Part shown: piece after piece, positions 497-32,488 of the stretch
Layout: the number at the start of each line of letters is the position of its first letter
Position numbering within the stretch: position 1 is the first letter of the stretch
Assembly: GCA_964527825.1 (NCBI GenBank)
Contig: CAZGRF010000001.1
Coordinates: forward strand, 1 to 40,686
Reading direction: 5' to 3'
Source of the DNA: an uncultured Pirellulales bacterium
GTDB taxonomy: Bacteria > Planctomycetota > Phycisphaerae > Sedimentisphaerales > Anaerobacaceae
DNA: 40,686 bases
The notes under the pieces: generated by a model
Database searches by the model: none
What the model was told of the DNA's origin: nothing
What the model saw: only the letters and a program-made list of their open reading frames with translations
Position numbers and translations under genes: made by a program

Positions 497-1247
497 GCAA
501 GTAGGCACGCGGGAGTACTTCGATCAGGTAGAGGCCCGGAAGTACTTCGTGGAGCCGCACATACCACAGTTTGCCGAGTTTGCACGGTGGAACGGGAAGA
601 AGGTCCTGGAGATAGGTTGCGGTATCGGTACCGACACGATCAATTTTGCCCGGGCAGGAGCCCACGTCACGGCCGTAGACGTCTCGGACGAGTCCCTCGC
701 GGTCGCAGAGCAACGCGCTGCCGTCTTTGGCTTGGAGGATCGTATTACGTTCTACCGAGCCGATGCAGAACGATTGTCCCAGACGGTTCCGGTCGAGACC
801 TATGACTTGGTCTACTCCTTCGGCGTGATTCACCATACCCCTCATCCACAAGAGGCCCTCCAGGAGGTAGCCAGGTACATGGGGCCCGAGAGCGTGCTTA
901 GGATGATGGTTTACAGCCGCCATTCCTGGAAAGTTCTCTGGATATTGGTCAAGTACGGAAAGCTGGCGTTCTGGAAACTGGACGAGCTTATCGCGCGTTA
1001 CTCGGAGGCCCAGACGGGCTGTCCCGTCACGTACAGCTACTCCCGCCGGACCGTGCTGGATCTGCTCGAAGGATTCGCCGTGCGACGAATGATGGTGGAC
1101 CACATCTTCCCCTATCGCATCCCTGAGTACAAGCGCTACGAATACAAGAAGGTCTGGTACTTCGACGTGTTGCCTCAGAGCGTCTTCCGCAGGCTGGAGA
1201 AGACCCTCGGCTGGCACCTGTGTGTGGAGGCGACTCTGAATGCCTGA
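405..1247 (+). CDS. Class I SAM-dependent methyltransferase
   Basis: ATG at 405. Motif I VLEIGCGIGTDTINFA is followed by the acidic loop VTAVDVSDE, and there is a post-motif YSFGVIHHTP. 280 aa. Confidence 0.8.
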   Translation: MTLVQTFPTKTIDDVRRYWNARPCNIRHSPEQVGTREYFDQVEARKYFVEPHIPQFAEFARWNGKKVLEIGCGIGTDTINFARAGAHVTAVDVSDESLAVAEQRAAVFGLEDRITFYRADAERLSQTVPVETYDLVYSFGVIHHTPHPQEALQEVARYMGPESVLRMMVYSRHSWKVLWILVKYGKLAFWKLDELIARYSEAQTGCPVTYSYSRRTVLDLLEGFAVRRMMVDHIFPYRIPEYKRYEYKKVWYFDVLPQSVFRRLEKTLGWHLCVEATLNA

Positions 1248-1983
1248 TCGCAAGCACGACAACTCGCTGTATCCTGTCGAAGCGATGATCCTGGCCGGCG
1301 GCAAAGGAGCCCGGCTGCGCAGCGCCGTCAGGGACCGGCCCAAACCCATGGCTGAAGTAGCAGGACGCCCATTCGTCGAATGGCTGCTGACGCTATTGCA
1401 CGACCAGGGAATCAGACGCGCGGTCTTGTGCACAGGGCATCTTGGCGAGCAGGTCGAAGCTCACTTTGGTGACGGTCGTCGATGGGACATGGAATTGCAC
1501 TACTCTCGCGATCCCTTCCCGCTGGGCACGGGCGGTGCGGTGCGTCACGCCCTCGACCGGATTCAAGGAGACCGATTCCTCGTGCTCAACGGGGACTCGT
1601 ACTGCCGGTTCGATCTCCAAGCACTGACCGATGTTCACATCGCAAACGGTGCTCAGGCGACGCTATGGCTGGTCGAAACGGGCGACTGTCGACGGTACGG
1701 GGCGGTGACTCTCCGCGAAGACGGCGCTGTGGAATCCTTCGCGGAGAAAGCATCCGACTTCGGGCGTGGGCTGGTCAGCGCCGGCGTCTATCTCATCGAG
1801 CAGGAGGCCGCGGAGACGATCCCTGTCGGTTGCTCAGTGTCCCTGGAGAAGGACTTCTTCCCGAGTCTGATCGGACGGGGGCTCTTCGCGGTGGCGGGAC
1901 AGGACGCGTTCATCGATATCGGCACGCCCGAGTCGTATGCCGAGGCTGGACGATTCATCACGGAAGAGGCAAACGCATGGTAG
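1240..1983 (+). CDS. Sugar-1-phosphate nucleotidyltransferase (HddC/ManC-like guanylyltransferase type)
   Basis: The N-terminal signature is MILAGGKGARLRS..RPKPM, followed by PLGTGGAV, LVLNGDSY and FIDIGTPESY. It overlaps the upstream stop by 8 nt. Confidence 0.8.
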   Translation: MPDRKHDNSLYPVEAMILAGGKGARLRSAVRDRPKPMAEVAGRPFVEWLLTLLHDQGIRRAVLCTGHLGEQVEAHFGDGRRWDMELHYSRDPFPLGTGGAVRHALDRIQGDRFLVLNGDSYCRFDLQALTDVHIANGAQATLWLVETGDCRRYGAVTLREDGAVESFAEKASDFGRGLVSAGVYLIEQEAAETIPVGCSVSLEKDFFPSLIGRGLFAVAGQDAFIDIGTPESYAEAGRFITEEANAW

Positions 1984-3005
1984 AAACGCGAAAGACAAGA
2001 GCACTGATTACGGGCATCACCGGTATGGTCGGTTCGCACTTGACCGACTACCTGCTGGAGAATACCGATTGGGACATCTACGGCATGTGCCGCTGGCGGA
2101 GTCCTTTGGACAACGTGCAACATCTTCTGGACAGGGCCAACCGGCAAGACCGCTTGTTCTTCATTCATGGCGACCTGTGCGATTCCATCTCACTTCAGGG
2201 AGCTATCCAAGAGAGCTTGCCTGACTACGTATTTCATCTCGCGGCTCAGAGCTATCCGACTACGAGTTTCACATCGCCAATCGCGACACTCGACACCAAT
2301 ATCCTGGGCACGACAAGGCTTCTCGAGGCGATTCGTCATTGTCGAGACATCGACCCGGTGATCCATGTGTGCGCGTCTTCGGAGGTGTTCGGTCGGGTCA
2401 GTCGGGACAAGCTCCCTATCGGCGAGGAGTGTGCCTTCCATCCGGCTTCGCCCTATGCGATCTCGAAAGCGGGAACCGATCTCGTCGGCCGCTTCTACGC
2501 GGAAGCCTATCAGATGAAAGTGATGACGACGCGCATGTTCACGCACACGGGACCTCGCCGAGGCGACGTATTTGCCGAGTCGTCTTTTGCCAAGCAAATC
2601 GCGATGATCGAAGAAGGGCTGCTCCCGCCCGTGGTCAAGACTGGTAACCTGGGTTCCTTGAGGACTTGGTCCGATGTGCGCGATGCCGTGAGGGCATACT
2701 ATCTGTTGGTCACTATGAATCCTATCCCAGGTGCCTACTACAACATCGGCGGCACCTACCACTGCACCGTGGGTGACATGCTCCGGTATCTGATCTCCCT
2801 GTCGCCCCGAAAGAGCGACATCCGCGTGGAAACGGAAGCCACGCGGCTGCGGCCCTTGGATGCCGACCTGCAGGTGCCCGACACGACCAAGTTCCGTGAG
2901 CACACCGGCTGGGAGCCTGAAATTCCGTTCGCGGAAACCATGCAGGATCTGTTGACCTACTGGCGCGAGCGGATCGCGCAGGGATGCAAGTGTCTGTCCC
3001 GGTAA
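1977..3005 (+). CDS. GDP-mannose 4,6-dehydratase-family extended SDR (GMD/Rmd/heptose-dehydratase-like)
   Basis: An internal ATG at 1977 overlaps the upstream stop (ATGGTAG). The longer 1482 start only shadows the previous gene. Motifs are Rossmann LITGITGMVGSHL, catalytic SPYAISK (YxxxK), and THTGPRRG and GNLGSLRTWSDVRD, which resemble NHESPRRG / GNxDSxRDW of GMD enzymes. Confidence 0.8.
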   Translation: MVETRKTRALITGITGMVGSHLTDYLLENTDWDIYGMCRWRSPLDNVQHLLDRANRQDRLFFIHGDLCDSISLQGAIQESLPDYVFHLAAQSYPTTSFTSPIATLDTNILGTTRLLEAIRHCRDIDPVIHVCASSEVFGRVSRDKLPIGEECAFHPASPYAISKAGTDLVGRFYAEAYQMKVMTTRMFTHTGPRRGDVFAESSFAKQIAMIEEGLLPPVVKTGNLGSLRTWSDVRDAVRAYYLLVTMNPIPGAYYNIGGTYHCTVGDMLRYLISLSPRKSDIRVETEATRLRPLDADLQVPDTTKFREHTGWEPEIPFAETMQDLLTYWRERIAQGCKCLSR

Positions 3006-3014
3006 GGCAAGGTT

Positions 3015-4022
3015 ATGAACGACGGCACACAACTGGTTGACTCTCAATGCGTCGATACTTCACTGCCTCAGACGAAACTGCATCTGGAGCTCTACCGGAC
3101 GATGTACCTGATTCGAGCGGCCGAGTTACTGATCCAGGAGCACTATGACGAAGACGAGATGAAGACCCCCATGCACATGTCGATGGGCCAAGAGGCTATC
3201 GTCGCCGGCGTTTGCTACGCGCTGAACCCTCAAGACCAGGTGCTGGGCACTTACAGGAGCCACGGTCTCTACTTGGCCAAGACCCAGGAAACGGACCGGT
3301 TCTTCGCGGAGATGTACGGGAAGGCATCCGGCCCCTGCGGTGGCAGGGCCGGCTCGATGCATCTACTTGCTCCAGAATCCGGCTTGATCTGCACCTCTGC
3401 TATCGTGGCCGGCCATATTCCCGTCGCGATCGGTGCTGCGTTCGCCAACAAGTTCACAGGCAGTGACCGAGTCGTGGCGGTCTTTTTCGGTGACGGCGCA
3501 GTCGACGAAGGAGCCTTTTGGGAAAGCTTCAACATGGCGTGCCTGAAGCGACTGCCGATTCTCTTCGTGTGTGAGGACAACGGATACGCTGTCCATACGC
3601 CGGCCGGCGAACGCCACGGGTACAAGGACATCCGAGCCATCGCCGCCCAGTTCGACTGCAACGTGTTTGCCAGTGACTCGACGGACGTACACGTCATCTA
3701 CGAACTGGCCCGAGAGGCATTGACGGTGATGGCCGATAGCGAACGGCCGTGCTTCCTGCATCTGAAGTACTACCGCTATCTTGAACACGTCGGCGTCAAT
3801 GAAGACTTCAAGGCGGGCTATCGATCCCGCGCGGAGTTCGAGGCGTGGCAGCGCGTCGATCCGTTACGCCTCCAGCGTGCGCGGCTGGCTTCCACGGTTT
3901 CAGAGGAAGACATCTGCGATCTGGAGACAGCGGTGGACAGGCAGGTGCAACGCAGCAAGGAGAAGGCCCAGGCGGCGTCCTTCCCAGATGTATCGACTCT
4001 GTGCGAGGGGGTGTCGGTATGA
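3015..4022 (+). CDS. Thiamine-diphosphate-dependent 2-oxoacid dehydrogenase E1 component, alpha subunit-like
   Basis: Motifs are MHMSMGQEAI, YRSHG, GGRAGSMH and the TPP motif FFGDGAVDEGAFWESFNMA..LFVCEDNGYA. ATG at 3015 with an AAGG upstream. Confidence 0.85.
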   Translation: MNDGTQLVDSQCVDTSLPQTKLHLELYRTMYLIRAAELLIQEHYDEDEMKTPMHMSMGQEAIVAGVCYALNPQDQVLGTYRSHGLYLAKTQETDRFFAEMYGKASGPCGGRAGSMHLLAPESGLICTSAIVAGHIPVAIGAAFANKFTGSDRVVAVFFGDGAVDEGAFWESFNMACLKRLPILFVCEDNGYAVHTPAGERHGYKDIRAIAAQFDCNVFASDSTDVHVIYELAREALTVMADSERPCFLHLKYYRYLEHVGVNEDFKAGYRSRAEFEAWQRVDPLRLQRARLASTVSEEDICDLETAVDRQVQRSKEKAQAASFPDVSTLCEGVSV

Positions 4023-5059
4023 GTTGTGTGATGACATCGCGGGATGCCATCAATGAGGCTATCGCTTCGGAAATGCGACGGGACCCCAGCGTGTTCGTCT
4101 ATGGCATCGACGTGGCCGATCACAAGCGTATCTTCGGGAGCAGCCGGGGGCTGGTCGAGGAGTTCGGACCGGATCGGTGCTTCAGCACACCGCTGTCTGA
4201 AGACGCGATGGCCGGTTTCGGCCTGGGCGCTGCCCTGAACGGACTGCGGCCGATTCACGTGCACATGCGCGTCGATTTCATGATCCTGGCTATGAATCAG
4301 ATCACGAACATAATCGCCAGCTTCAGCTACGGGGCCGGCGGACTCAAGGTGCCAATCGTGATCCGCGCCATCATCGGACGTGGGTGGGGACAGTCCTGGC
4401 AGCATAGCAAAACGCTCCACTCGTGGTTTGCTCATGTCCCGGGGTTGAAAGTCGTCATGCCCGCGCGGGCTCGTGACGCACGCGATATGATGATCGCCGC
4501 TATTCGCGATGACAACCCAGTCATCTGCATCGAACACCGCTGGCTCTACGACGTCACGGGCGAAGTGCCCGACGAGATCGATCCGGATGCCCTTGTTGGC
4601 TGTCGCGTCGTGCGCGACGGGACGGATGTCACCGTTGTAGCGGTCTCGTGGATGGTGATCGAAGCCTTGAAGGCGGCCGAGGTCCTGGCCGAGCGCGGGG
4701 TGGACGTGGAAGTGATTGACGTTCGATCCATCGCGCCCTACGACAGCGCGACAGTGGCAGACTCCGTGCGGAAAACAGGCCATGCCGTCGTCGCGGACTA
4801 CGATTGGATTCACTGTGGCTTCGGAGCGGAAGTCGCTGCGCGAATCTACGAAGAGTGCATGGCCGGACTATACTCTCCCGTGACACGGCTGGGCTTTGCC
4901 GAGGCCCACTGTCCCTGCACGCGGCCGCTGGAAAACGCGTACTACCCGAATGCCATCGACATCATCCGAGCCATCGAGAGAAAACTCGATCTGTCCGAAG
5001 CGGACCTGACCGGCGAAGAATTCTATTCTTATGAGAAGAAATTCAAGGGACCGTTTTGA
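4019..5059 (+). CDS. 2-oxoacid dehydrogenase E1 component, beta subunit-like
   Basis: ATG at 4019 forms an ATGA overlap with the alpha-subunit stop. Motifs are INEAIASEMRRDPSVFVYG.D, FSTPLSEDAMAGFGLGAALNGLRP, and a C-terminal transketolase-C-like part (DVTVVAVSWMV..VDVEVIDVRSIAPYD). Confidence 0.85.
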   Translation: MSCVMTSRDAINEAIASEMRRDPSVFVYGIDVADHKRIFGSSRGLVEEFGPDRCFSTPLSEDAMAGFGLGAALNGLRPIHVHMRVDFMILAMNQITNIIASFSYGAGGLKVPIVIRAIIGRGWGQSWQHSKTLHSWFAHVPGLKVVMPARARDARDMMIAAIRDDNPVICIEHRWLYDVTGEVPDEIDPDALVGCRVVRDGTDVTVVAVSWMVIEALKAAEVLAERGVDVEVIDVRSIAPYDSATVADSVRKTGHAVVADYDWIHCGFGAEVAARIYEECMAGLYSPVTRLGFAEAHCPCTRPLENAYYPNAIDIIRAIERKLDLSEADLTGEEFYSYEKKFKGPF

Positions 5060-5107
5060 GGCACGATCCATGTCCTGGGGACACCGGCCGAGATAGAGAC
5101 TCGAACC

Positions 5108-5974
5108 ATGGACGTACGAATGATGAAGGCCAAAGCAGCCGAGCTGAGGCTGCGGGTTATGGAGGCGGCCCTCAGCGCCGGAAAGGGGCACGTGGCTCCT
5201 GCGTTCTCCTGGGTGGAGATTGCCGTCGCCCTATTCTATGCCGGAATCTTGAGGATGGATCCCCATGACCCAACATGGCCGGCCCGGGACCGTTTCATCT
5301 TGAGCAAGGGACATGGTTGCCTGACGCTGTACACCGTTCTTGCTGACCTCGGCTTCTTGCAGCGCGATGCGCTGGAGGGCTTCTGCCGGGACGGGAGCAT
5401 TCTGGCCGGACATCCCGATACCAACATCCCGGGCGTGGAGGCCATTTCCGGCTCGCTCGGCCACGGGCTCGGCGTTGGGGCCGGTCTGGCGTTGGGCGGC
5501 CGGCTTGACCGTGAGCACTGGATGGTCTTTGTGCTCTTGGGCGATGGAGAATGTGACGAGGGTTCGATCTGGGAAGCTGCCATGTTTGCTGGGCACCACC
5601 GGCTCGACAACCTCGTGGCCATCGTAGACCGAAACCGCCTTAGCGCGACAGACTTCACCGAGAACATCCTCACCCTGGAGCCCTTGGCACACCGCTGGAA
5701 AGCCTTCGGATGGGACGTTGTATCTGTCGACGGTCACTCCTTCGAGGACTTGGTCGAGGTCTTCTCCCAAGTACGCCATCGTTCGTCCCTGAAGCCATTG
5801 GCCGTGATTGCCAATACGATCAAGGGCAGAGGTGTCAGTTTCATGGAGGTATCTCCGAATTGGCATCACCGCCTTCCCAAGGGCGACGAGGTTCAGGCCG
5901 CATTGCAGGAACTGCATGTAGTGTTGAAAGAGGCTGAAGACCAGATGATCAGGGAGCATTGCGATGCAGGCTGA
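5108..5974 (+). CDS. Transketolase, N-terminal (TPP/PP-binding) subunit
   Basis: Motifs are GKGHVAPAFSWVEI, LSKGHGCLTLY, GSLGHGLGVGAGLAL and LLGDGECDEGSIWEAAMFAGHHRLDNLVAIVDRN. Confidence 0.85.
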   Translation: MDVRMMKAKAAELRLRVMEAALSAGKGHVAPAFSWVEIAVALFYAGILRMDPHDPTWPARDRFILSKGHGCLTLYTVLADLGFLQRDALEGFCRDGSILAGHPDTNIPGVEAISGSLGHGLGVGAGLALGGRLDREHWMVFVLLGDGECDEGSIWEAAMFAGHHRLDNLVAIVDRNRLSATDFTENILTLEPLAHRWKAFGWDVVSVDGHSFEDLVEVFSQVRHRSSLKPLAVIANTIKGRGVSFMEVSPNWHHRLPKGDEVQAALQELHVVLKEAEDQMIREHCDAG

Positions 5975-6902
5975 TTTTCGAGATGCCGTCTTCTTGAGTG
6001 TTCGCACGCTGATGGAACAGGATGAGAGAATCTTCGTCCTCTGCAATGACATGGGGGCGATGGAATTGGACCGCATTCGCAGCGACTACCCGCAGCGCGT
6101 CATCAACGTGGGGATCTGCGAGCAGAATATGGCCAGCGTTGCTGCCGGATTGGCGTTGACGCACCGCCGGGTCTTCGTTTATGGCATTATCGCGCACGTG
6201 TTCTCGCGGGGCTTCGAACAGATCCGAAACGACATCTGTCTGCCGAATCTTCCGGTCGTGATTCTCGGTGTCGGCAGCGGTCTGTCCTATGGTGGTGACG
6301 GGCCGACCCATCACGGTGTTGAAGACATCGCCGTGATGCGCACTCTACCCCACATGGCGATCTACAACCCGGCGGATTGCGCCTCCGCCGGCGCTCTGAC
6401 GAGAGAGGCAGCCGAGCGCCACGGGCCCGGCTACGTGCGTCTGGACAAAGAGCAGTTGCCGCAGATTTACAGCACAGAAACGAGTTTCAGCGCGGGATTC
6501 GAGGTCCTTCACGAGGGACAAGATGTCGCCTTGGTTGCTACCGGCGTGATCGTTCACCGGGCGCTGAGGGTGGCTCGGTCACTCGCCGCAGAGGGCATCG
6601 GCGTGCGTGTGGTGGATGTCTACCGTCTCAAACCGGTAAACACGATCGGGTTGACAGAGGTTCTCAGCAATGTCGATTCCGTTGTCACGCTGGAAGAGAA
6701 CTCCTCGGTGGGTGGGCTTGGTCAAATCGTCGGCGATCTGCTGGCGCGAGATGCTCATCAACCCAGGTTCACCAGTCTCAATCTGGGCGACCAGGCGCTG
6801 ATGAGCGCGGCCACCAGATCATGGGCAGAGCAGCGTTTTGGCTTGAGCGACGAGGCCGTGGCCGGAGTCCTGCGCGACATGGCTGAGGGGGTCGAAGCAT
6901 GA
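5964..6902 (+). CDS. Transketolase, C-terminal (Pyr + TK-C) subunit
   Basis: Motifs are NVGICEQNMASVAAGLA and GDGPTHHGVEDIAVMRTLP, with a C-terminal VVDVYRLKP. It overlaps the N-terminal subunit gene by 11 nt. Confidence 0.85.
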   Translation: MQADFRDAVFLSVRTLMEQDERIFVLCNDMGAMELDRIRSDYPQRVINVGICEQNMASVAAGLALTHRRVFVYGIIAHVFSRGFEQIRNDICLPNLPVVILGVGSGLSYGGDGPTHHGVEDIAVMRTLPHMAIYNPADCASAGALTREAAERHGPGYVRLDKEQLPQIYSTETSFSAGFEVLHEGQDVALVATGVIVHRALRVARSLAAEGIGVRVVDVYRLKPVNTIGLTEVLSNVDSVVTLEENSSVGGLGQIVGDLLARDAHQPRFTSLNLGDQALMSAATRSWAEQRFGLSDEAVAGVLRDMAEGVEA

Positions 6903-7882
6903 TGATAGAGCAGCAAGTGAATAAATCGGGTCTCGAAGAAGTGGCCGCCACCGTGGCGGAAGTCACGCTGGCAGACTTTGCTGAATCGTTCGGAATCACT
7001 GTTGAGGACATGCCCGAGCGATGTCGAGAGATGATAGCATACGGTAACTTCCGGTATCGCAAAGCAGAAGGCCAAAAAAGGGACCGGATCATCCTGGAGG
7101 TTCTGAAGAAGATAGCGGCGGACCGCCAGGTGGTGGGAGCGAGTGAACGCAAGGATGTGTGGAATGCCGGGTGGGAAGAGAGCTACGAGGGCTTTGTGCG
7201 CAGCGGATACGATCTTGCCAGACTTGTGCCGCGGTTCATTCGGCCGGGTCAGCCCATCCGCTGGCGGCAGGAATACATAATTCCGGAGAACGAATGGTTT
7301 GAACTGGATTACTTCGCCGTCCTGCGTGAGTGGCTGTTCGAGACATACTGTGCCGATGCGAACGCAATATACGAGTTTGGGTGCGGCACGGGATTCAACC
7401 TTGCCGCCCTCGCGCAGCGCTATCCCGACAAGGAGTTCCACGGCTTTGATTTTGTCCCTCCAGCCAAGAAGATGTTGGACGCAATGGCCGGTGTGTATGG
7501 CTGGCGGATGCAGGGACATATGTTCGATATGACGGCGCCGGACGCGCGGATTGAGTTCAGAGACAACAGTAGGCTACTCACGTTTGGCGCGTTGGAGCAA
7601 CTGGCGGGGAGGATCGAGGCCTTTTTCGATTTCGTGCTGAAGCGTTCGCCGAGCCTATGCGTGCACGTGGAGCCGGTCATCGACCTTTATGATGAGGACA
7701 ACCTCATCGACTTCCTGGCGGCGTCGTTTCATCGCAAGCGAGGCTATACAGCAAATCTACTGGGCTTACTGAAAGATCTCGAATCGCGCGGCAAGATCGA
7801 ACTGCTGAAGGTCAAACGCTCGTTCTTCGGAAGTCTCTTCATGGAAGGGTACACGTGCCTGGTCTGGCGACCGATCGGATGA
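6899..7882 (+). CDS. Putative class I SAM-dependent methyltransferase with an unrecognised ~150-aa N-terminal region
   Basis: ATGA overlap with the upstream stop. Motif I is IYEFGCGTGFNLAALA, followed by FHGFDF. I cannot assign the N-terminal half. Confidence 0.6.
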   Translation: MMIEQQVNKSGLEEVAATVAEVTLADFAESFGITVEDMPERCREMIAYGNFRYRKAEGQKRDRIILEVLKKIAADRQVVGASERKDVWNAGWEESYEGFVRSGYDLARLVPRFIRPGQPIRWRQEYIIPENEWFELDYFAVLREWLFETYCADANAIYEFGCGTGFNLAALAQRYPDKEFHGFDFVPPAKKMLDAMAGVYGWRMQGHMFDMTAPDARIEFRDNSRLLTFGALEQLAGRIEAFFDFVLKRSPSLCVHVEPVIDLYDEDNLIDFLAASFHRKRGYTANLLGLLKDLESRGKIELLKVKRSFFGSLFMEGYTCLVWRPIG

Positions 7883-7897
7883 CACGGGTGGAGTCGC

Positions 7898-8680
7898 ATG
7901 GAATTAGGACTCAAGGGCAAATGTGCATTGATCACCGGCGGCAGTCACGGCCTGGGTTGCAGTACGGCCGTGGCTCTGGCCAGGGAAGGCTGTAACGTCG
8001 CCATATGTGCGCGGGGACAGCGCCGCATTGATGAAACACTGGCCGAACTGGATGCCTACGGAGTCGAGACGTTGGGCGTAGCGGCTGACGTCGTAAAGCC
8101 AGAGGATGTCGCAAAGGTCGTTGACACGGTCCTTAGCGCATGGGGCACGGTACATATTCTCGTTAACAATGTCGGCGGCGGTGGTCGCTGGGGAACGCCG
8201 GTGATAGAGGAAACGGCGGAAGAGGTATGGCTGGAAGTCTACGCCAAAAACGCTCTGGCCGCTGTGCGCTTCACCACGGCGATTCTCCCCTGTATGCGCA
8301 AGCAGAAGTGGGGAAGAGTTGTGACGGTGAGTTCACGGCTCGGTCGTGAAGGGGGAGGCAGGCCGTGGTTTGCGATGGCAAAGACGGCGCAGACGGCGAT
8401 GATGAAGTCCCTTGCCATGACACCTTACCTGGCCCGCGACGGCATCACCTGCAACTCGGTAGCGCCCGGCAGCATCATGATACCGGACACCGGCTGGGAG
8501 CGCGAAGCCTTGGAGAATCCCGAAGCGTTTCAGCAGATGCTGGAGAAGGACTTCCCTCTGGGCCGGTTGGGGACGCCGGAGGAAGTCGCGGACGTGATCG
8601 TATTCTTGTGTTCGGAGCGAGCGTCACTGGTCAATGGCGCGTCCGTTCTTGTGGATGGAGGCGAAAGCCGGGCTTTTTGA
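7898..8680 (+). CDS. Classical SDR oxidoreductase (FabG-like), non-canonical active site
   Basis: Motifs are LITGGSHGLGCSTAVALA (TGxxxGxG) and NNVG, with Ser in VTVSS. The position of YxxxK reads WFAMAK, so Phe replaces the catalytic Tyr. GGTGGAG lies upstream of ATG 7898. Confidence 0.8.
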   Translation: MELGLKGKCALITGGSHGLGCSTAVALAREGCNVAICARGQRRIDETLAELDAYGVETLGVAADVVKPEDVAKVVDTVLSAWGTVHILVNNVGGGGRWGTPVIEETAEEVWLEVYAKNALAAVRFTTAILPCMRKQKWGRVVTVSSRLGREGGGRPWFAMAKTAQTAMMKSLAMTPYLARDGITCNSVAPGSIMIPDTGWEREALENPEAFQQMLEKDFPLGRLGTPEEVADVIVFLCSERASLVNGASVLVDGGESRAF

Positions 8681-8696
8681 ACTGTGGAGCGTGCCG

Positions 8697-9716
8697 ATGA
8701 CCGGCAATGAAATAGTGCATGGCAATTGCGACGACATCGCGCCAGGTCTGTACACCGTGGCAGGTGCGGCAGGTCTGATGGGCACTTCTGCACTCAGGCG
8801 ATTGCATGGCGCGCCAGGTGTGAATGTGCGCGCCGTGTACCACAGAAGAAAGCCGTTGATAGAGGGAGACAGCATTGAACTCGTGCAAGCGGACTTGCGA
8901 GATGAAGAGGCTTGCCGTGCGGTCTGTTCCGGAACCGACTATGTGTTTATGTTCGCTGGCATTCTCTCCACGGCGGCGGTGCTCGCGCGAGATCCGGTTG
9001 CGCACATCATCGATAACGTGGCGATGACAACGCGCATGATGCAAGCCGCCTACGAGAGCCGCGTCAAGACGTTTGTGTGGCTGAGCAGTTCGACGGGTTA
9101 TCCACAGCAAGTATCCTCGTTGACGGAAGATGACATGTTTCACGGCGACCCCCCGGCGGGATACTTCGCCGTCGGCTGGTATTCTCGCTACATCGAAAAG
9201 CTGGCGCAGCACTATGCACAGCATGTGCCTAATCCTTTGCAGGTGGTAATGCTACGGCCCACGACGATCTATGGAGAATATGAATCGTTCGATCTTGACG
9301 AATGTCACATGTTGCCCGCGCTGGTGAGGAAGACGATCAAGCGGATGAATCCGATCGAAGTCTGGGGCGACGGTGAGCAAAAGCGTGACCTTATCTATGC
9401 CGATGACGTGTTGACCGCCTGCCTTCTCGCCATGCGGCAGAGCGAGCCCTATCAGGTATACAACGTGGGAGCAGGGGTGCAGTACAGCGTCGAGGACTTG
9501 TTGCGCACGATCATCGAGCAGGACGGATATGCGAATGCTCGGGTCGAGTACAGGATGGACAGACCGTCAGCCCCGGTCCGGCGTGAGCTGGATCTCGCTC
9601 GGTCCCGCGCCGTCCTCGGCTTTCGGCCGCAGACGTCAATTGAAGATGGCATTCGTCGAATGATACACCGTTGCCGAAAACTGTACGGTGTCCCAGTGTT
9701 GGAGGAGGCAAAATGA
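8697..9716 (+). CDS. Extended SDR, NAD-dependent epimerase/reductase (GDP-L-fucose-synthase-like fold)
   Basis: An internal ATG at 8697 is preceded by GGAG. The 8634 start would overlap the upstream gene. Motifs are VAGAAGLMGTS (GxxGxxG), SSSTGYP, RPTTIYG and CHMLPALVRK..VWGDGEQKRDLIYADDV. Confidence 0.75.
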   Translation: MTGNEIVHGNCDDIAPGLYTVAGAAGLMGTSALRRLHGAPGVNVRAVYHRRKPLIEGDSIELVQADLRDEEACRAVCSGTDYVFMFAGILSTAAVLARDPVAHIIDNVAMTTRMMQAAYESRVKTFVWLSSSTGYPQQVSSLTEDDMFHGDPPAGYFAVGWYSRYIEKLAQHYAQHVPNPLQVVMLRPTTIYGEYESFDLDECHMLPALVRKTIKRMNPIEVWGDGEQKRDLIYADDVLTACLLAMRQSEPYQVYNVGAGVQYSVEDLLRTIIEQDGYANARVEYRMDRPSAPVRRELDLARSRAVLGFRPQTSIEDGIRRMIHRCRKLYGVPVLEEAK

Positions 9717-11050
9717 GAGTCGGAGTCGTCGTTTCGTCATGGCATTACTTTGCGGACCCCTTCAAGTTGCAGCCGCTATATGAGCTGTTCCATGCAACGA
9801 TCGCAAGGCGACACGGCCTTGGGCAGGAGAATGTGACGGTCTACGACCTGCGCGAGTGGCGCCGGTCGGAGGACGTGGATTTCGAGGCCCATCTCGACCA
9901 GTACGTGGATGAGAATGATCTGTACTTCTATTGGGTCATGAAGACAGCGGATTATCCGGAGGTCGAAGAGACGGTGCGCTTCCTGCGCCGGAAGTATCCT
10001 CGATCCGTACACATAGCGGGAGGAACGCACATTGATGTCTGCATTGATGAATGCGCCCCAGTGTTTGATGCGGTCCTCTCCGGTCCGGGCGACAGGAGTC
10101 TCTGTGAGTGCATCGACGACCATCGTGCCGGCCGGCTGAAGGGTCGCTACACGGACGACTGGAGCCGGCGGCCCTATTCGGCGGCGCCATATCCCCGGCG
10201 TGAGTTTCTCCCTGAACATGCCGTGGTCAACACGGAGTTGTTTCGCCAGTACGGCGGAGTTCGCGCCACATCGGCGATGCTCCAACGCGGTTGCTGCTTT
10301 CGCTGCGCCTACTGTGCGTATAACGTGCCGCCGATGATCCAGAGACGAACGCCGGAGCAGATAAAGGAGGAGGTCGCTTATCTGAAGGAGACGTATCATA
10401 TCGGTGGATTGAACCTGCGGGATGAAATCGCCATTCCCCTGAATCCCCGGATTGCGGAGTCACACTTGAAGGCCCTGGGTGAATGCGGGCTCATCTGGCG
10501 CGGTCAGACCAAGGTCGGGGCGGCCAAGAATGAGGTGGTGCCGCCGGAGATCATCGCGTTGGCGGCGGAAACCGGTTGCGTCGAATTGGCTGTTGGGGTG
10601 GAGAGTGCCTCGCAACAGGTGCTGGACCTGATCGACAAGAGGCAGGACATTGAAGCCGCGCGGGATTTCATCATTCAGTGTCGCGCGCACGGCATAAGGA
10701 TCAAAATGTGTCTGATTCTCGGTTTGCCGGGCGAGCCACCGGACATCATCGATCGGACTCTAGCGCTCATCGAAGAGGCGCAGCCCGATTTCGTCAACGT
10801 GTCCGGCTTCTGTCCGGTGCCCGGATCACCGATCTTCAAGCGTCCGTCAGAATACGGAATCAAGAGCATCGATCGTGATTGGCGCAGACACGCGCATCTC
10901 GTCTTTCGGTACTCCGACGAAGAAGATTTCGGTCTGCCGTTCGAATACGAAGAGAATGGGCCTTGGGGCCGGAATTTCACCCGAGACGAGATCGTTGAAA
11001 ACATCAAGTCGCTGCAAAAACGTCTTCGTGCGCGAGCGATGGTCTATTAG
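9713..11050 (+). CDS. B12-binding-domain (class B-like) radical SAM enzyme
   Basis: ATG at 9713 forms an ATGA overlap, with GGAGGAGG upstream. The N-terminal cobalamin-binding-like domain ends ..HIAGGTHIDVC..FDAVLSGPGDRSL. The CxxxCxxC cluster motif CCFRCAYC is at 10292-10315. Confidence 0.75.
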   Translation: MRVGVVVSSWHYFADPFKLQPLYELFHATIARRHGLGQENVTVYDLREWRRSEDVDFEAHLDQYVDENDLYFYWVMKTADYPEVEETVRFLRRKYPRSVHIAGGTHIDVCIDECAPVFDAVLSGPGDRSLCECIDDHRAGRLKGRYTDDWSRRPYSAAPYPRREFLPEHAVVNTELFRQYGGVRATSAMLQRGCCFRCAYCAYNVPPMIQRRTPEQIKEEVAYLKETYHIGGLNLRDEIAIPLNPRIAESHLKALGECGLIWRGQTKVGAAKNEVVPPEIIALAAETGCVELAVGVESASQQVLDLIDKRQDIEAARDFIIQCRAHGIRIKMCLILGLPGEPPDIIDRTLALIEEAQPDFVNVSGFCPVPGSPIFKRPSEYGIKSIDRDWRRHAHLVFRYSDEEDFGLPFEYEENGPWGRNFTRDEIVENIKSLQKRLRARAMVY

Positions 11051-11061
11051 GAGCAGGTTCC

Positions 11062-12246
11062 ATGCTGAGTTTGTACAACGGACAGATGCCGTATCACAGA
11101 CGTTCCTGTGCTGCGCCGTGGACAACACTTGTGCTGGACAAGGACGGGAGTCTCTCATTCTGTTGTTACCTGAAAGGGCTGGCCAACATCTATGAGATGT
11201 CGGACAGGGCGTTCGAGGAAGTCTGGAACGGGCCGGTGGCCCGACGTGTCAGGAACCAGTGGGTCGAGGGACGTCTCGAGGGACTCCGTTGCGCGAACTG
11301 CCCTGGGCTTCAACGCTTCGGGGAGTATCCTCACTATGCGTTGACAAAGCCCGATTTGTTCCAAGGCTCGAACCCGGCGGCGCTCAACGCCCGGCTGAAC
11401 CTGAAGGAGTTTGTGGCGGGGGCAACTCGCCTTCAATCAGCTCCGCTGGAAATCGTGTATATCCCCGGCGTAGCCTGTAACATCCAGTGCATTCACTGTT
11501 TTCAACCACGGGCCGGATCGGATACCGCGATCCCGCCCCAGCAATTGCTCCGGTTCTACCATCTGTTGGGAGACCGGGCCATTCTTCACTTGATGTCGGG
11601 CGGCGAACCTTTAGTCATTCCGGCGGTGGAGACTTTGGTCCAGGCCATTTCGGCCGAACACCGAGCCGGTTCGGAGATCATCCTGCAAACCAATGGCCAG
11701 TTGCTCAAGGATCGTTTTCGCCGCTTCCCAGGCTTCAAGAAATATCACGTTAGAATCAGTATCGACGGCTATGACAAGGAGACGTATGAGTACATCCATC
11801 GCGGCGCCCAATTCGAGCGTCTTCTCGAGGGCATTGCCGAGGTCAACGAGGCCCGAGGCGAGCTTGATGTCACTACCTCTCTGGTCATGGTTCTCATGCT
11901 CTCCAACTTTCGTAACCTGAACATGCTGTTCGATTTCGCCGATGAGCACCTCTTCAATGATGTCTGGGTGACGCCCGTGCATGCTGCCTATGGGAAACGA
12001 GATGCTTTGAGAAACGAGAACATCTTTGAATTCAGAGATCTCTTGCATCGTGTGCCCGAATGGCCTGACACACTTGACAACGCCATTGAACGATCCATGC
12101 TGTCGGGCCGGCACCTGGCCTGCAGGCATCTGGAGTACATCAAAGGTGAGCTGACAAAGCCGGGCGCGCGAAATGCGAACGTCACCACTTGTGCGGTGGG
12201 TCAGCGAACGGCAGCTCGTGTTCCCAACGGTGTGGTGGCTCACTGA
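11062..12246 (+). CDS. Radical SAM enzyme with N-terminal twitch/SPASM-like Cys-rich domain
   Basis: ATG at 11062 with AGGAG upstream. The N-terminus CAAPWTTLVLDKDGSLSFCC...VWNGP...CANCPG (11107-11307) fits CX12GX4C plus CX2C. The radical SAM CxxxCxxC (CNIQCIHC) follows at 11476-11499, then SGGEPL. Confidence 0.7.
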   Translation: MLSLYNGQMPYHRRSCAAPWTTLVLDKDGSLSFCCYLKGLANIYEMSDRAFEEVWNGPVARRVRNQWVEGRLEGLRCANCPGLQRFGEYPHYALTKPDLFQGSNPAALNARLNLKEFVAGATRLQSAPLEIVYIPGVACNIQCIHCFQPRAGSDTAIPPQQLLRFYHLLGDRAILHLMSGGEPLVIPAVETLVQAISAEHRAGSEIILQTNGQLLKDRFRRFPGFKKYHVRISIDGYDKETYEYIHRGAQFERLLEGIAEVNEARGELDVTTSLVMVLMLSNFRNLNMLFDFADEHLFNDVWVTPVHAAYGKRDALRNENIFEFRDLLHRVPEWPDTLDNAIERSMLSGRHLACRHLEYIKGELTKPGARNANVTTCAVGQRTAARVPNGVVAH

Positions 12247-12318: not shown

Positions 12319-13314
12319 ATGATACATGATGAGATACTGACTCAGTTGTGCGGCTCGAATGCCCTCGTCACCGGCGGCACCGGCTTGATTGGACGCCAGG
12401 TAGTGAGAATCCTGTGTGACGCGGGCGCGAGCATTCGAGTGGTTTCCCTCGACCGGATGAAGGTCGATGAACGGGCCGAGCATGTCACAGGTGATCTGGC
12501 AGACTTCGATCTCTGCAAACAGCTCACCAGGGACATGGATTACGTGTTTCACGTTGCCGGCATCAAAGGGTCCATCGATGTAACCAAGAGCAAACCGGCC
12601 AGCTTCTTCGTGCCGTTGCTGATGATGAACACCAACATGCTCGAAGCAGCCAGAGTCTGTGGCGTCAAGAAGACGGTCTACACGAGTTCCATCGGGGCTT
12701 ATCCCAGTGCGGAAGTGTTCAAAGAGTCGGACGGCGATGACGGTCCTCCGATGGACATGTTTCCCGGGTGGGCCAAGCGCATGGCGGAGATGCAGATCCA
12801 GGCGTATCGGATTCAATACGGGCTGCAGAACTTCGCTGTAGTCCGCCCGTGCAACGTGTACGGCCCCGGGGACAACTTCGATCCTAACAATGCCATGGTG
12901 ATCCCCTCATTGATGTACCGCATCCGTAACGGGGAAGACCCCTTGTTGGTCTGGGGAGACGGCTCGGCCGTCCGGGATTTTGCCTACAGCGAGGACGTCG
13001 CAGAGGGCGTCATTCTCGCGCTCTATCACGGCACGCAGGGGCGTTACGTGAACCTTGGCAGTGGACGCGGATATTCGATCCGTGAGCTGGTAGAGACATT
13101 GAACAGTTTCATTCCCTTCAACTACGAGTTCGATACGACGAAATCATCGGGCTTTCCGCGGCGCGTCATGGACATCTCTTTGGCCCGCGACACGCTCGGC
13201 TACGATCCGCAGACATCCTTGGCGGACGGTTTGAAGAAGACCTGGGAATGGTTTGTAGCCAACCAGGAAGAGTATCTGAATCGGAAGAACTACTTCGCGG
13301 AAGCGGGTGTGTAG
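12319..13314 (+). CDS. Extended SDR, GDP-L-fucose-synthase-like epimerase/reductase paralog
   Basis: Motifs are ALVTGGTGLIGRQV, YTSSIGAYP, RPCNVYGPGDNFDPNNAMVIPSL and LVWGDGSAVRDFAYSEDV. The active-site region reads FPGWAKR, with no Tyr four residues before the Lys. Confidence 0.75.
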   Translation: MIHDEILTQLCGSNALVTGGTGLIGRQVVRILCDAGASIRVVSLDRMKVDERAEHVTGDLADFDLCKQLTRDMDYVFHVAGIKGSIDVTKSKPASFFVPLLMMNTNMLEAARVCGVKKTVYTSSIGAYPSAEVFKESDGDDGPPMDMFPGWAKRMAEMQIQAYRIQYGLQNFAVVRPCNVYGPGDNFDPNNAMVIPSLMYRIRNGEDPLLVWGDGSAVRDFAYSEDVAEGVILALYHGTQGRYVNLGSGRGYSIRELVETLNSFIPFNYEFDTTKSSGFPRRVMDISLARDTLGYDPQTSLADGLKKTWEWFVANQEEYLNRKNYFAEAGV

Positions 13315-13833
13315 ATGCAAGTGCAAACGACAAAGCTTGAAGGCGTCTTGCTTATACAACCGCCGACGGTTTTCGAGGATTTCCGCGGAACCTACGTCGA
13401 GACCTACAACGAGCAACTGTACCGGGACAGCGGGGTCGATGTCACCTTCGTACAGGATGACATCTCCGTTTCGAGCCGACATGTCCTGCGTGGCATTCAC
13501 GGCGACGCGGAAACGTGGAAGCTCGTCTCCTGCCTGTATGGGAAGTTCTATCTCGTAGTCGTCAACGGGGACAAGGAATCGAGCGAGTACGGTCGATGGC
13601 AGGGCTTCACGCTGTCGGAACACAATCGACTACAGGTCCTGATCCCGCCCAGACACGGCAATGGACACGTGGTCATGAGCGAGCAGGCCATCTTTCATTA
13701 CAAGCAGTCAACGTACTACAACCCGAAAGGCCAATTCACGATCGTTTGGAACGATCCGGCGTTCAACATTTGGTGGCCGGTCAAACGGCCCATCCTCTCG
13801 CGCCGGGATGAAGTCGGGCATTTCGTGGAATAG
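13315..13833 (+). CDS. RmlC-like cupin sugar-nucleotide 3,5-epimerase
   Basis: Motifs are FEDFRGTYVETY, VLRGIHGD, KLVSCLYGKFYLVVV and IPPRHGNGH..IVWNDPAFNIWWP. It starts immediately after the upstream stop. Confidence 0.8.
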   Translation: MQVQTTKLEGVLLIQPPTVFEDFRGTYVETYNEQLYRDSGVDVTFVQDDISVSSRHVLRGIHGDAETWKLVSCLYGKFYLVVVNGDKESSEYGRWQGFTLSEHNRLQVLIPPRHGNGHVVMSEQAIFHYKQSTYYNPKGQFTIVWNDPAFNIWWPVKRPILSRRDEVGHFVE

Positions 13834-13844: not shown

Positions 13845-14795
13845 ATGTTTCAAGGACGAAACGTACTGGTGACCGGAGGAGCGGGCTTCATCGGCTCCAG
13901 GCTGGTCGAGCGGCTGCTGGCGGTGGGGGCTCGGGTCCGCGCTACGCTCCATCAGAAGGACGCCGTGCTTTCAGATGACAGGATTGAGTATGTGCGCGGC
14001 GACCTGATGCAAGCCGAAGACTGCCGCCGTGCTTGTGAAGACATGGAATACGTGTTCCTCTGTGCGGCCAACACCTCCGGCGCGGCGGTGATGGAAACGA
14101 CGCCGCTGGTCCATCTGACGCCCAACCTGATCATGAACGCGAGGATGCTGGAGGCGGCCCACGCGGCCGGCGTGAAGAAGACGCTTTTCATCAGCAGTAA
14201 CACGGTTTATCCCGTCTCAGATAGCCCGGTGCAGGAAACGGATGTCACGAACGAATTCTTTGAGAAGTACTTCATTGTGGCATGGATGAAGCGTTTCACG
14301 GAGATCATGTGCGAGATGTATGCCACAAGGATCAAGAAACCCATGCAGACAGTCGTTGTTCGTCCGGCCAACGCCTACGGGCCGGGCGACAAGTTCGACT
14401 GGGAAACCTCCCATGTATTGCCGGCCTTGATCCGTCGTGTAGTTGAGCGTCACGACCCCATCCGGGTGTGGGGCGACGGCAAGGATGTCAAGGATTTCAT
14501 CTATGCAGACGATCTCGTGGAGGGCATGCTGCTGGCGATGGAGAAGATAGACGGCTTCGACGCCGTCAATCTGGCCAGCGGCAGGGAGTATTGTCTGCGC
14601 GATGTTCTGGCCTTGATTATCAAGCTCGACGGCTACGCGGGCGCTCGGGTCGAGTACGACACGAGCAAGCCCACCATGATTCCGAAACGTCTCATCGATC
14701 CGTCAAAGGCAAGGCGTTTGCTGGGCTTCGAGGCAACAACACCCTTGGAAGCCGGCCTGCGGAAGACCATCGACTGGTACAGGAGCACCCTATGA
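13845..14795 (+). CDS. Extended SDR, GDP-L-fucose-synthase-like epimerase/reductase paralog
   Basis: Motifs are VLVTGGAGFIGSRLV, FISSNTVYP, RPANAYGPGDKFDWETSHVLPALIRR and VWGDGKDVKDFIYADD. The active-site region reads YFIVAWMKR. Confidence 0.75.
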   Translation: MFQGRNVLVTGGAGFIGSRLVERLLAVGARVRATLHQKDAVLSDDRIEYVRGDLMQAEDCRRACEDMEYVFLCAANTSGAAVMETTPLVHLTPNLIMNARMLEAAHAAGVKKTLFISSNTVYPVSDSPVQETDVTNEFFEKYFIVAWMKRFTEIMCEMYATRIKKPMQTVVVRPANAYGPGDKFDWETSHVLPALIRRVVERHDPIRVWGDGKDVKDFIYADDLVEGMLLAMEKIDGFDAVNLASGREYCLRDVLALIIKLDGYAGARVEYDTSKPTMIPKRLIDPSKARRLLGFEATTPLEAGLRKTIDWYRSTL

Positions 14796-14944
14796 TTGTT
14801 ACCCATACGTCGTCCAAGATTCCCCGCCCCGATGTCGAAGCGTCCCGCCAGTCGGCTAAGGGGTCCGTCGTGGCTGAGCTTCACAGGGACGCTCCTGATT
14901 CGAGTTCGTTTGCAGAGAGCCGTCGGATCGTACAGGGCCACCCG

Positions 14945-31790: not shown

Positions 31791-32488
31791 CTGTATGTGC
31801 TCCGCTCCAAGAGAACGATTTCCAGGACTCGCTCGGTCTTGGGATTCGCGGCAAACAGGCCGCTCTCTTGTAGCCTATCTTGTGTCACAGTGCTTGCCGA
31901 AGATATACTGAAACGCTCTTTGTCGAGTCCTTTGCGGCCGGCCAGGAATTGGGTGACTTCCCAGGCTCGTTTGAGCCCGGTTGCGTCGGTGTCGGTGCTG
32001 GCCTTCACCGCGTGCTCGCTAACGACCACCCGGTTAGGCACGGCCCCCAGAAGGGCTGCCACATCGGTTAGTATCTGGCGACCGTGGGCGGACATGCGGA
32101 CACCCATGCCGAGGAAGATCTTGTCTGAAGGCACGAGAAAGACCTTCTGGCTCTGGAAATCCAGGAAGTCCAGGTTCTCGCTCGGTCTTGATTCATGTTG
32201 GCCGTCTACCGTTGGCTTTTCGCTGCCTGCATCCGGCTCCCGACTATGCACGACAACTGGGGTCGGGGCCAGGGCCTCATGGTGCTTTGTGGGGCGCAGG
32301 CCGAGCGAGGTGAGTCCCTCGGCAAGGGCAGACTCCATTTTGGGGAACACCTTGTCATCAAATGAGGAGAAGCTCAGCAGCAGAACGAAGAACGTGAGCA
32401 GGAGGGTCATACAGTCGCTGAACGTGACCATCCATTCCGGGGCGCCGGCACCTTCGTCAGACGTGCTCTGTTTGAGTCCTGTGGCCAC
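31787..32488 (-). CDS. motB: MotB-like stator protein, first paralog
   Basis: The GTG start overlaps the motA stop by 1 nt. The TM segment is WMVTFSDCMTLLLTFFVLLL. The OmpA-like C-terminus looks degenerate (..GLKRAWEVTQFLAG..). Confidence 0.75.
   Translation of the reverse strand: MATGLKQSTSDEGAGAPEWMVTFSDCMTLLLTFFVLLLSFSSFDDKVFPKMESALAEGLTSLGLRPTKHHEALAPTPVVVHSREPDAGSEKPTVDGQHESRPSENLDFLDFQSQKVFLVPSDKIFLGMGVRMSAHGRQILTDVAALLGAVPNRVVVSEHAVKASTDTDATGLKRAWEVTQFLAGRKGLDKERFSISSASTVTQDRLQESGLFAANPKTERVLEIVLLERSTYR

Follow-up and report, generated by a model that had tools for sequence, protein, structure and literature searches.

Two thiamine diphosphate enzyme systems in a planctomycete flagellar glycosylation operon as candidate carboligases of a GDP-linked keto sugar

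Gene content of the operon

We analyzed a 40,686-nt (40.7 kb) stretch of DNA from a member of Planctomycetota (contig CAZGRF010000001.1 of assembly GCA_964527825.1, forward strand; the whole stretch is hereafter the window). A plus-strand sugar operon in the window encodes two separate thiamine diphosphate (ThDP)-dependent enzyme systems, namely an E1 alpha/E1 beta pair and a transketolase (TK) split into an N-terminal (TK-N) and a C-terminal (TK-C) subunit. A sequence-only reading of the same DNA had called these four open reading frames (ORFs) and placed them among nucleotide-sugar genes. Pfam and structure matches confirmed the four assignments, and the domain matches of the neighbouring genes confirmed the setting. 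The four genes are:

3015..4022, +: ThDP-dependent E1 alpha (alpha-keto acid dehydrogenase family 2), orphan; PF00676 E1_dh 2.8e-49
4019..5059, +: E1 beta, translationally coupled to E1 alpha; Transket_pyr 3.2e-30, Transketolase_C 1.7e-30
5108..5974, +: TK-N, the transketolase N-terminal (PP-domain) subunit; PF00456 Transketolase_N 3.1e-41; structure 6yak 2.4e-67
5964..6902, +: TK-C, the transketolase C-terminal (Pyr + C domain) subunit, with a variant phosphate pocket; Transket_pyr 2.4e-32, Transketolase_C 1.9e-19; structure 6yaj 1.6e-54

The stop of E1 alpha and the start of E1 beta overlapped by 4 nt, and TK-N and TK-C by 11 nt. A metagenome scaffold (L089) carried the same gene order, from the nucleotidyltransferase through the radical S-adenosylmethionine (SAM) genes, at 80–91% amino acid identity. 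Every gene compared between the window and L089 was under purifying selection (ratio of nonsynonymous to synonymous substitution rates, dN/dS, 0.04–0.11), with values of 0.09 for E1 alpha, 0.04 for E1 beta, and 0.11 for each of TK-N and TK-C. Therefore, the four ThDP-enzyme genes are real and constrained.

The operon starts with the 3' end of a UDP-glucose/GDP-mannose dehydrogenase gene followed by a SAM methyltransferase gene. This pair (dehydrogenase and class I methyltransferase; 32–1247, +) headed the operon only in the closest relatives, L001 and L003 (2/55 surveyed loci). Next come a nucleotidyltransferase, a 4,6-dehydratase, the four ThDP-enzyme genes, a methyltransferase-like gene, a classical short-chain dehydrogenase/reductase (SDR), a GDP-fucose-synthase-like SDR, a B12-binding radical SAM gene, and a radical SAM/SPASM gene. 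The operon continues with an SDR, an RmlC-like epimerase, a second SDR, and an HddA-like GHMP kinase, and it ends with a giant protein that combines tetratricopeptide repeats (TPR), glycosyltransferase family 2 (GT2) domains, and a radical SAM domain. The Rfam scan of the window returned no RNA element and hence no thiamine pyrophosphate riboswitch, and base composition showed no anomaly across the operon. Promoter- and terminator-like sites occurred at chance level without enrichment within the operon, which is consistent with a single long operon.

The gene for the filament cap protein FliD directly follows the sugar operon, and everything further in the window consists of flagellar genes according to Pfam. 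The operon is therefore a flagellar glycosylation locus. The features at this end are:

15987..24491, +: giant TPR + 3x GT2 + radical SAM/SPASM protein of ~2,834–2,913 amino acids; the ORF opens at 15750, but alignment to the L001 orthologue favours a start at 15987
24611..26947, +: fliD, filament cap; Pfam FliD_N and FliD_C; marks the flagellar context
Downstream of fliD, -: flhB, fliR, fliP, fliO, motB, motB, motA, fliJ, fliI, fliH, fliG, fliF, flgC, flgB; domain matches

The giant protein, whose orthologues in L001 and L003 were 67–69% identical, presumably glycosylates flagellin with the sugar made by the operon. Multi-GT2 giants also followed the cassette in L096 and L097, and the fusion of a GT2 giant to a radical SAM domain is unusual. 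Among the flagellar genes, two tandem motB-like genes (31032–31790 and 31787–32488, both on the minus strand) lie downstream of motA; both products have the MotB plug, and an OmpA domain was recognisable in only one of them.

The E1 pair and its cassette across phyla

Human pyruvate dehydrogenase (PDH) E1 alpha and beta were the nearest solved structures to the E1 subunits of the window. The two genes are adjacent and separate, and their products have the ThDP motif and the catalytic Glu and His intact: the ThDP motif GDG...N and the histidine of YRYxxH in E1 alpha were invariant across its clade, and E1 beta, aligned with human E1 beta, retains the cofactor-activating Glu (TPLSE) and His (QHS). 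These features would also fit an ordinary dehydrogenase E1 (pyruvate or acetoin type) whose E2 and E3 partners are encoded at a distance and which provides, for example, acetyl-coenzyme A for sugar acetylation. The alpha and beta His residues for lipoyl acetylation are retained, and only 40 kb of the host genome is visible. We nevertheless consider this explanation highly improbable, based on partner genes, family scores, and phylogeny.

The sequence-only reading had described the E1 pair as lacking E2 and E3 and had proposed a check for a lipoyl-E2 gene. tblastn searches with E. coli AceF (E2) and Lpd (E3) gave no match at E<=1e-3 in the window and 82 related loci (1.39 Mb), and nothing even at E<=10 in seven loci added later. 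Neither E2 nor E3 was thus found in any of these 89 loci, nor by Pfam among the remaining ORFs of the window. As positive controls, we used three canonical E1 alpha/beta loci (Ralstonia, Embleya, and Streptomyces; 35–37% identical to the window protein), all of which had E2 immediately downstream (3/3), detected by the same AceF query (1.8e-26 in the Ralstonia locus L092). The Embleya and Streptomyces plasmid matches had been considered as AviB-like comparators and were rejected because they are canonical E2-linked E1s, thereby becoming controls. The E1 subunits also scored below the NCBIfam equivalog cut-offs for PDH E1: E1 alpha scored 260 against TIGR03182 (PDH E1 alpha; cut-off 394), and the NF006667 score was 297 (cut-off 321). 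In a small, rough neighbour-joining tree, the two types of cassette E1 alpha clustered together and apart from the three E2-linked E1 alphas.

At E<=1e-30, E1 alpha matched 2,895 database sequences, of which the best 120 were 59–86% identical to it, except for a partial copy of the window's own protein. Its clade (53–82% identity) occurred in at least 173 species genomes (one genome per species) from more than 10 phyla, nearly always as part of one sugar 4,6-dehydratase cassette, and the rarity that the sequence-only reading had expected of such a sugar was not borne out, since the cassette is genomically widespread. The best 80 of the 173 relatives (53–76% identity) were from Planctomycetota (the closest being a metagenome-assembled genome (MAG) of Phycisphaerae), Desulfobacterota, Omnitrophota, many Patescibacteria, Dehalococcoidia, Magnetococcales, Nitrospirota, Acidobacteriota, Bacteroidota, Elusimicrobiota, and one Nanoarchaeota MAG. 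Identities of 53–82% across Patescibacteria, Nanoarchaeota, and Planctomycetota, always with sugar genes, fit a mobile sugar cassette and not core metabolism.

We surveyed the related loci by tblastn with the window's proteins and counted genes in the 55 loci with full flanks. Synteny was conserved across phyla: the recurring cassette consisted of the dehydratase, E1 alpha, E1 beta, optionally TK-N and TK-C, and optionally the methyltransferase-like gene and an SDR, followed by SDR, RmlC, SDR, GHMP kinase, and nucleotidyltransferase. E1 beta was present in all loci (55/55) and the dehydratase in 51/55; the SDR/RmlC/SDR trio followed with 47, 42, and 44 of 55, respectively, and the GHMP kinase with 36/55. 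The TK pair and the methyltransferase-like gene were each found in 29/55 loci, an aldo-keto reductase and a 253-amino-acid protein each in 25/55, and the classical SDR in 20/55. A third ThDP enzyme, YerE-like and absent from the window, occurred in 6/55. Of 86 E1 alpha genes, 81 were followed by E1 beta. A dehydratase homologue lay directly upstream of E1 alpha in 51/86, and a NUDIX gene separated the two in 15/86 more (66/86 combined). Across loci, the E1 pair was thus co-located with a nucleoside diphosphate (NDP)-sugar 4,6-dehydratase and with downstream enzymes for ketone tailoring (SDR, aldo-keto reductase, or DegT).

The cassette is modular, and the TK pair is an optional add-on to its E1 core. 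Flagellar genes lay within 10 kb in 7/90 loci and Wzm/Wzt transporters were found in 14/55; therefore, the cassette serves different glycoconjugates. Several loci stacked ThDP systems: E1 alpha/beta, TK, and a YerE-like enzyme occurred together in L060 and L087, E1 and a YerE-like enzyme in L038, two E1 pairs in L027 and L069, and two TK pairs in L070. A distant orphan E1 alpha/beta pair (42–44% identity), accompanied by a DegT-type aminotransferase and an oxidoreductase, was found on plasmids of cultured Azospirillum, namely AZO_p6 of A. lipoferum 4B (L098; NC_016588), where its neighbours are a TPR protein and a GT41 glycosyltransferase, and a plasmid of A. thermophilum (L091). Outside actinomycetes, this pair could offer an accessible system for studying sugar branching by E1-type enzymes.

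The literature agrees with the sequence-only reading that orphan E1 pairs attach C2 branches to NDP-ketosugars: E1 alpha/beta pairs without E2 and E3 attach a pyruvate-derived two-carbon (C2) unit to C3 or C4 keto sugars (PMC12247030, PMC4802897). Examples come from the pathways for aldgamycin, kosinostatin, kibdelomycin, paulomycin (Plm8/9), avilamycin, and trioxacarcin, with ~120 clusters known, and for the kibdelomycin pair KbDH-alpha/beta the C2 addition was shown in vitro on sugar analogues (PMC12247030). By analogy with these enzymes, we infer that the E1 pair of the window is a pyruvate-dependent carboligase acting on a keto sugar.

The transketolase pair and the tailoring block

The nearest solved structure to both TK subunits was the split transketolase of Carboxydothermus hydrogenoformans (6yak/6yaj). 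Alignment with E. coli TktA showed that the ThDP and metal ligands and the donor-binding residues His26, His100, His261, His473, and Asp469 of a canonical transketolase are retained, as are His66, Asp155, Asn185, Arg358, and Glu411. The canonical phosphate pocket (Arg358, Ser385, His461, and Arg520) is altered: His461 is replaced by Gly, Arg520 is replaced by Lys, and Ser385 is absent, leaving Arg358 as the only retained residue. Among the 120 closest TK-C homologues, Gly occupied position 461 in 120/120 and Lys occupied position 520 in 117/120, and the cassette transketolases from the E1 survey had Gly at position 461 in 31/32. The pocket His and Arg are both present in the proven split transketolase 6yaj and in human transketolase. 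These substitutions suggest that the distal pocket of the TK variant has widened and no longer acts as the standard phosphate site.

All six sampled genomic contexts of TK-C homologues (44–69% identity) were the same heptose cassette (6/6), and two of them adjoined fliD or fliW/csrA. E1 alpha/beta was called within 10 kb in 5/6; in the sixth (L095), just a cut Transket_pyr gene was visible at the locus edge, so that in these six contexts the TK subfamily was never seen with E1 alpha/beta clearly absent. In the window, as in the miharamycin type of cluster, the split N and C genes lie within a keto-sugar-making tailoring cluster. Two genes absent from the window tracked the TK pair among the surveyed loci. 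The aldo-keto reductase, which has a C-terminal extension (e.g., L048 15494–16606), occurred in 19/29 loci with the pair vs 6/26 without it. The 253-amino-acid protein (L034 15926–16687 and 24 other loci), which had no Pfam match and by eye resembles TylF-type methyltransferases, occurred in 22/29 vs 3/26.

These data bear on the possibility that the TK pair belongs to ordinary metabolism and supplies sedoheptulose 7-phosphate as the heptose precursor, leaving the E1 pair alone to tailor the sugar. The pathway is apparently heptose-based, transketolases produce sedoheptulose 7-phosphate, the TK pair has every catalytic residue that a working transketolase needs, and its presence is optional, as that of a supply gene might be. 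However, the sugar-phosphate-binding residues are altered throughout the subfamily, whereas the proven split transketolase retains His461 and Arg520. Moreover, the pair is located after E1 beta among tailoring genes and away from gmhA/gmhB, showed no association with gmhA (6/29 loci with the pair vs 6/26 without it), and correlated instead with the reductase and the 253-amino-acid protein in sugar cassettes. A supply function is therefore unlikely, and the sequence features are best explained by a specialised, optional module of a non-housekeeping transketolase subfamily. Gly at His461 together with Lys at Arg520 provides an annotation signature for such non-housekeeping transketolases.

The TK pair opens a block of tailoring genes, which continues as follows:

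6899..7882, +: class I SAM methyltransferase-like protein travelling with the E1 pair; weak Methyltransf_25 6e-5
7898..8680, +: classical short-chain dehydrogenase; adh_short_C2 3.6e-48
8634..9716, +: GDP-fucose-synthase-like extended SDR; true start probably slightly downstream (L089 orthologue, 345 amino acids)
9713..11050, +: B12-binding radical SAM enzyme, class B methyltransferase-like; Radical_SAM 4e-16, weak B12-binding match, PhpK-family 1.9e-24
11062..12246, +: radical SAM/SPASM (twitch) enzyme; domain matches

Homologues of the first product are annotated as class I SAM-dependent methyltransferases, and their genes usually lay directly after E1 beta or TK-C. The methyltransferase-like gene and the classical SDR occurred together in 15 loci. 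The classical SDR is a candidate reductase of the branch ketone, a role suggested by its analogy to YerF and to the octose ketoreductase of paulomycin biosynthesis (PMC9306805, PMC4753412). The ATG at 9713 agreed with the 445-amino-acid orthologue in L089. The module of an Fcl-like SDR and a B12-binding radical SAM enzyme (window 8634–12246), which in the window is followed by the twitch/SPASM enzyme, recurred in few cassettes (L026, L069, L076, and L089) and suggests that the branched sugar undergoes additional C-methylation or radical tailoring.

The TK subunits of the window were 49% and 38% identical to the pair in the nearest relatives L001 and L003, whereas the flanking genes were 79–92% identical. 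L001 (12045–15291) and L003 are without the methyltransferase-like, classical SDR, Fcl-like, and both radical SAM genes, and L089 and L090 share the window's version of the block. The divergence of TK relative to its flanks therefore indicates an exchange of the tailoring block (5108–12246), which lies downstream of E1 beta and ahead of the SDR/RmlC/SDR core.

Acceptor sugar, proposed pathway, and known systems

The genes that bear on the identity of the sugar are:

1240..1983, +: sugar-1-phosphate nucleotidyltransferase, guanylyltransferase-like (ManC/HddC type); Pfam NTP_transferase 1.5e-34
1977..3005, +: GDP-sugar 4,6-dehydratase, DmhA type, putative maker of the 4-keto-6-deoxy acceptor; best structure 7US5
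12319..13314, +: extended SDR, GDP-fucose-synthase-like, cassette core
13315..13833, +: RmlC-type 3,5-epimerase of 4-keto sugars; PF00908 2.9e-47
13845..14795, +: extended SDR, GDP-fucose-synthase-like reductase
14792..15934, +: GHMP sugar kinase, HddA/fucokinase-like; GHMP_kinases_N and _C

The sequence-only reading had assumed a 4-keto sugar made by an enzyme like GDP-mannose dehydratase. A 4,6-dehydratase is indeed present, but it was closer to the Campylobacter GDP-D-glycero-D-manno-heptose 4,6-dehydratase (7US5; 2.5e-105) than to GDP-mannose dehydratase (7e-41). Against NCBIfam, the nucleotidyltransferase matched mannose-1-phosphate guanylyltransferase (5e-56) and the heptose-1-phosphate guanosyltransferase HddC (7e-41), neither reaching the cut-off, and the GHMP kinase matched the heptose 7-phosphate kinase HddA (7.5e-41) below the cut-off. 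The epimerase matched the GDP-D-glycero-4-keto-D-lyxo-heptose 3,5-epimerases 8DB5, 8DCO, and 7M14 and dTDP RmlC about equally (all ~1e-34). The window thus holds the components of a Campylobacter-type GDP-heptose pathway, namely a DmhA-type dehydratase, an RmlC-type epimerase, an Fcl-type reductase, and HddA/HddC-type activation (HddA/HddC below equivalog cut-offs). Among related loci, gmhA was present in 12/55 and gmhB in 10/55, and both genes also occurred within the cassettes of L086 and L088. Because of the 7US5-like dehydratase, the HddA/HddC-like genes, the epimerase match, and gmhA/gmhB in related cassettes, the most likely acceptor is GDP-6-deoxy-4-keto-heptose, with GDP-4-keto-6-deoxymannose as the fallback.

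We put at roughly 55% the probability that two ThDP carboligases tailor a GDP-linked keto sugar in this flagellar glycosylation operon, with higher confidence in the E1 step and lower confidence in the TK step. The probable product of the cassette is a C-branched seven-carbon sugar destined for flagellin or for glycans of the cell surface. The pathway described here, with its substrates, sequence of reactions, branch position, and delivery to flagellin, is the one suggested by family knowledge and synteny. The HddA-like kinase and the guanylyltransferase would activate a heptose (less likely mannose), and the DmhA-like dehydratase would convert the product into GDP-6-deoxy-4-keto-heptose. The E1 alpha2beta2 enzyme would decarboxylate pyruvate to hydroxyethyl-ThDP and add this unit to the C4 ketone to form a 4-C-acetyl tertiary alcohol, as AviB1/B2, Plm8/9, and KbDH do, after which the neighbouring classical SDR and the methyltransferase-like protein may modify the acetyl branch. 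The TK variant would form dihydroxyethyl-ThDP and pass a C2 unit (hydroxyacetyl) on to this nucleotide sugar; the accepting carbonyl would be the ring ketone, if the pathway runs in two parallel branches, or else the acetyl ketone newly formed by E1. Finally, the epimerase and reductases would complete the sugar, and the giant TPR/GT2 protein would load it onto flagellin. The earlier proposal of a C2-branched and/or chain-extended sugar agreed with every check that could be computed, its chemistry being a prediction from the enzyme families; the proposal that transketolase-like pairs branch sugars likewise exists in the literature, as a suggested route to hydroxyacetyl branches (PMC12247030).

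The TK variant would have one of these two targets. In a sequential model, E1 installs the 4-C-acetyl group, TK adds a glycolaldehyde unit to the new alpha-hydroxy ketone, and a reductase fixes the product. Action of TK on the ketone made by E1 would explain why the TK subfamily was not seen clearly without E1 and why a reductase usually follows, but we regard this model as speculative and rather unlikely. If true, sequential ThDP-dependent chain building would yield a doubly branched sugar with 9 to 11 carbons, an unrecognised class of higher-carbon sugars, which would decorate flagellin, a role held by nonulosonic acids elsewhere, and the surface glycans of many uncultured phyla, including Patescibacteria. 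As a variant of the two-carboligase pathway, both systems may instead act on the same 4-keto intermediate to yield two sugars, one 4-C-acetyl and one 4-C-hydroxyacetyl. In other pathways, a ring ketone is the proposed point of attack for either enzyme type (PMC12247030), the three GT2 domains downstream make several donors plausible, and the cassette is modular; however, this arrangement would not account for the apparent dependence of TK on the E1 step, to which the context with only a cut Transket_pyr gene (L095) is no clear exception, and we judge it improbable.

One or both ThDP enzymes might also work in the opposite direction and cleave C–C bonds by a retro-acyloin reaction, thereby shortening the keto sugar or transferring a piece of it. 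The physiological reaction of Ao:DCPIP oxidoreductase, a member of the family, is the cleavage of alpha-hydroxy ketones (PMC12247030), a class that includes 4-keto sugars bearing a 3-OH, and transketolases are reversible. Nevertheless, cleavage adjacent to C4 would leave the pyranose ring open in a nucleotide sugar still required by the downstream glycosyltransferase, and all known sugar-cluster E1 pairs are pyruvate-using ligases (PMC12247030, PMC4802897). Ketoreductases after both enzymes are, moreover, as expected following acyloin condensation, which makes cleavage very unlikely.

Several points weigh against tailoring of a GDP-heptose by two carboligases. The chemistry of every member of the E1 clade is a prediction from family knowledge, and the likeness of the pair to AviB1/B2, Plm8/9, and KbDH is one of gene layout and presumed chemistry. 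For the TK step, the split-gene transketolases of miharamycin and amipurimycin are proposed, unproven in vitro, to transfer hydroxyacetyl to a keto sugar (PMC12247030). The survey loci were picked via E1 alpha itself, so that co-occurrence describes the E1 alpha clade only, and the absence of E2 and E3 covers the window and the sampled loci, with copies elsewhere in a genome being possible. gmhA and gmhB are absent from the window, where heptose over mannose is a deduction; they may be encoded elsewhere in the host genome. In addition, branching at C4 leaves no C4 ketone, and the two GDP-fucose-synthase-like reductases would need another job or a second product.

C-branched sugars of the E1 type are so far known from actinomycete antibiotics, and branching of the transketolase type has so far only been proposed. 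Judging by this locus and more than 170 related ones, the same chemistry appears to be widely used on GDP-heptose for flagellin and surface glycans in mostly uncultured hosts. Our literature search found no description of an E1 or a transketolase within a GDP-heptose or flagellar glycosylation cassette; a promising paper that mentions flagellin glycosylation as well as a transketolase does so only incidentally. The dehydratase, E1 alpha, E1 beta, and the TK pair form a compact set that is directly testable in vitro, and the cassettes are a natural source of candidate carboligases making tertiary alcohols.

The GDP-heptose enzymes of Campylobacter jejuni (DmhA 7US5; epimerases 8DB5 and 7M14; C4 reductases) resemble those of the window in the dehydratase, the epimerase, the Fcl-like reductases, and the HddA/HddC-like activation. 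In Campylobacter, however, these pathways lack ThDP enzymes and are limited to epimerisation and reduction, whereas here two putative carboligases directly follow the dehydratase. The C. hydrogenoformans transketolase has the same split alpha2beta2 architecture as the TK pair (PMC7661550) but keeps the phosphate-binding His and Arg in place of the Gly and Lys found here. YerE-type ThDP flavoenzymes follow a similar logic, in that they C4-branch a nucleotide-linked 4-keto sugar of a surface glycan before a ketoreductase acts (PMC9306805). They differ in belonging to the decarboxylase/acetolactate synthase superfamily, in being single polypeptides, and in using CDP-3,6-dideoxy-4-keto-glucose. 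Yersiniose, erwiniose, and caryophyllose are attributed to enzymes of this other superfamily (PMC9306805). Erwiniose and caryophyllose were considered as precedents for chain extension by E1 plus transketolase and were rejected, being attributed to YerE-like enzymes that use longer 2-oxo acids (PMC9306805).

The split transketolases of miharamycin and amipurimycin also consist of N and C subunits in a sugar-tailoring cluster with a keto-sugar-forming enzyme (PMC12247030). These enzymes, compared here by description, come from Streptomyces, act in nucleoside antibiotic pathways, and have no E1 partner, and the 13 split transketolases predicted to form hydroxyacetyl branches are all from Streptomyces (PMC12247030). 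The TK subfamily of the window, in contrast, accompanies an E1 pair within heptose cassettes and has the Gly461/Lys520 pocket signature. The AviB1/AviB2, Plm8/Plm9, aldgamycin, kosinostatin, and KbDH pairs are, like the E1 pair here, adjacent alpha and beta genes without E2 or E3 in the cluster, and they likewise lie beside an NDP-sugar 4,6-dehydratase and ketoreductase or aminotransferase tailoring genes. They act on dTDP-deoxyhexoses for antibiotics in Actinomycetota, whereas the nucleotide here is of the GDP type, the scaffold is probably a heptose, the predicted product is destined for flagellin or surface glycans, and the hosts are Planctomycetota, Desulfobacterota, Omnitrophota, Patescibacteria, and others. 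The carboligation logic is thus familiar, while the nucleotide sugar, the type of glycoconjugate, and the host range are new, and the E1 pair is often combined with a dedicated transketolase subfamily.

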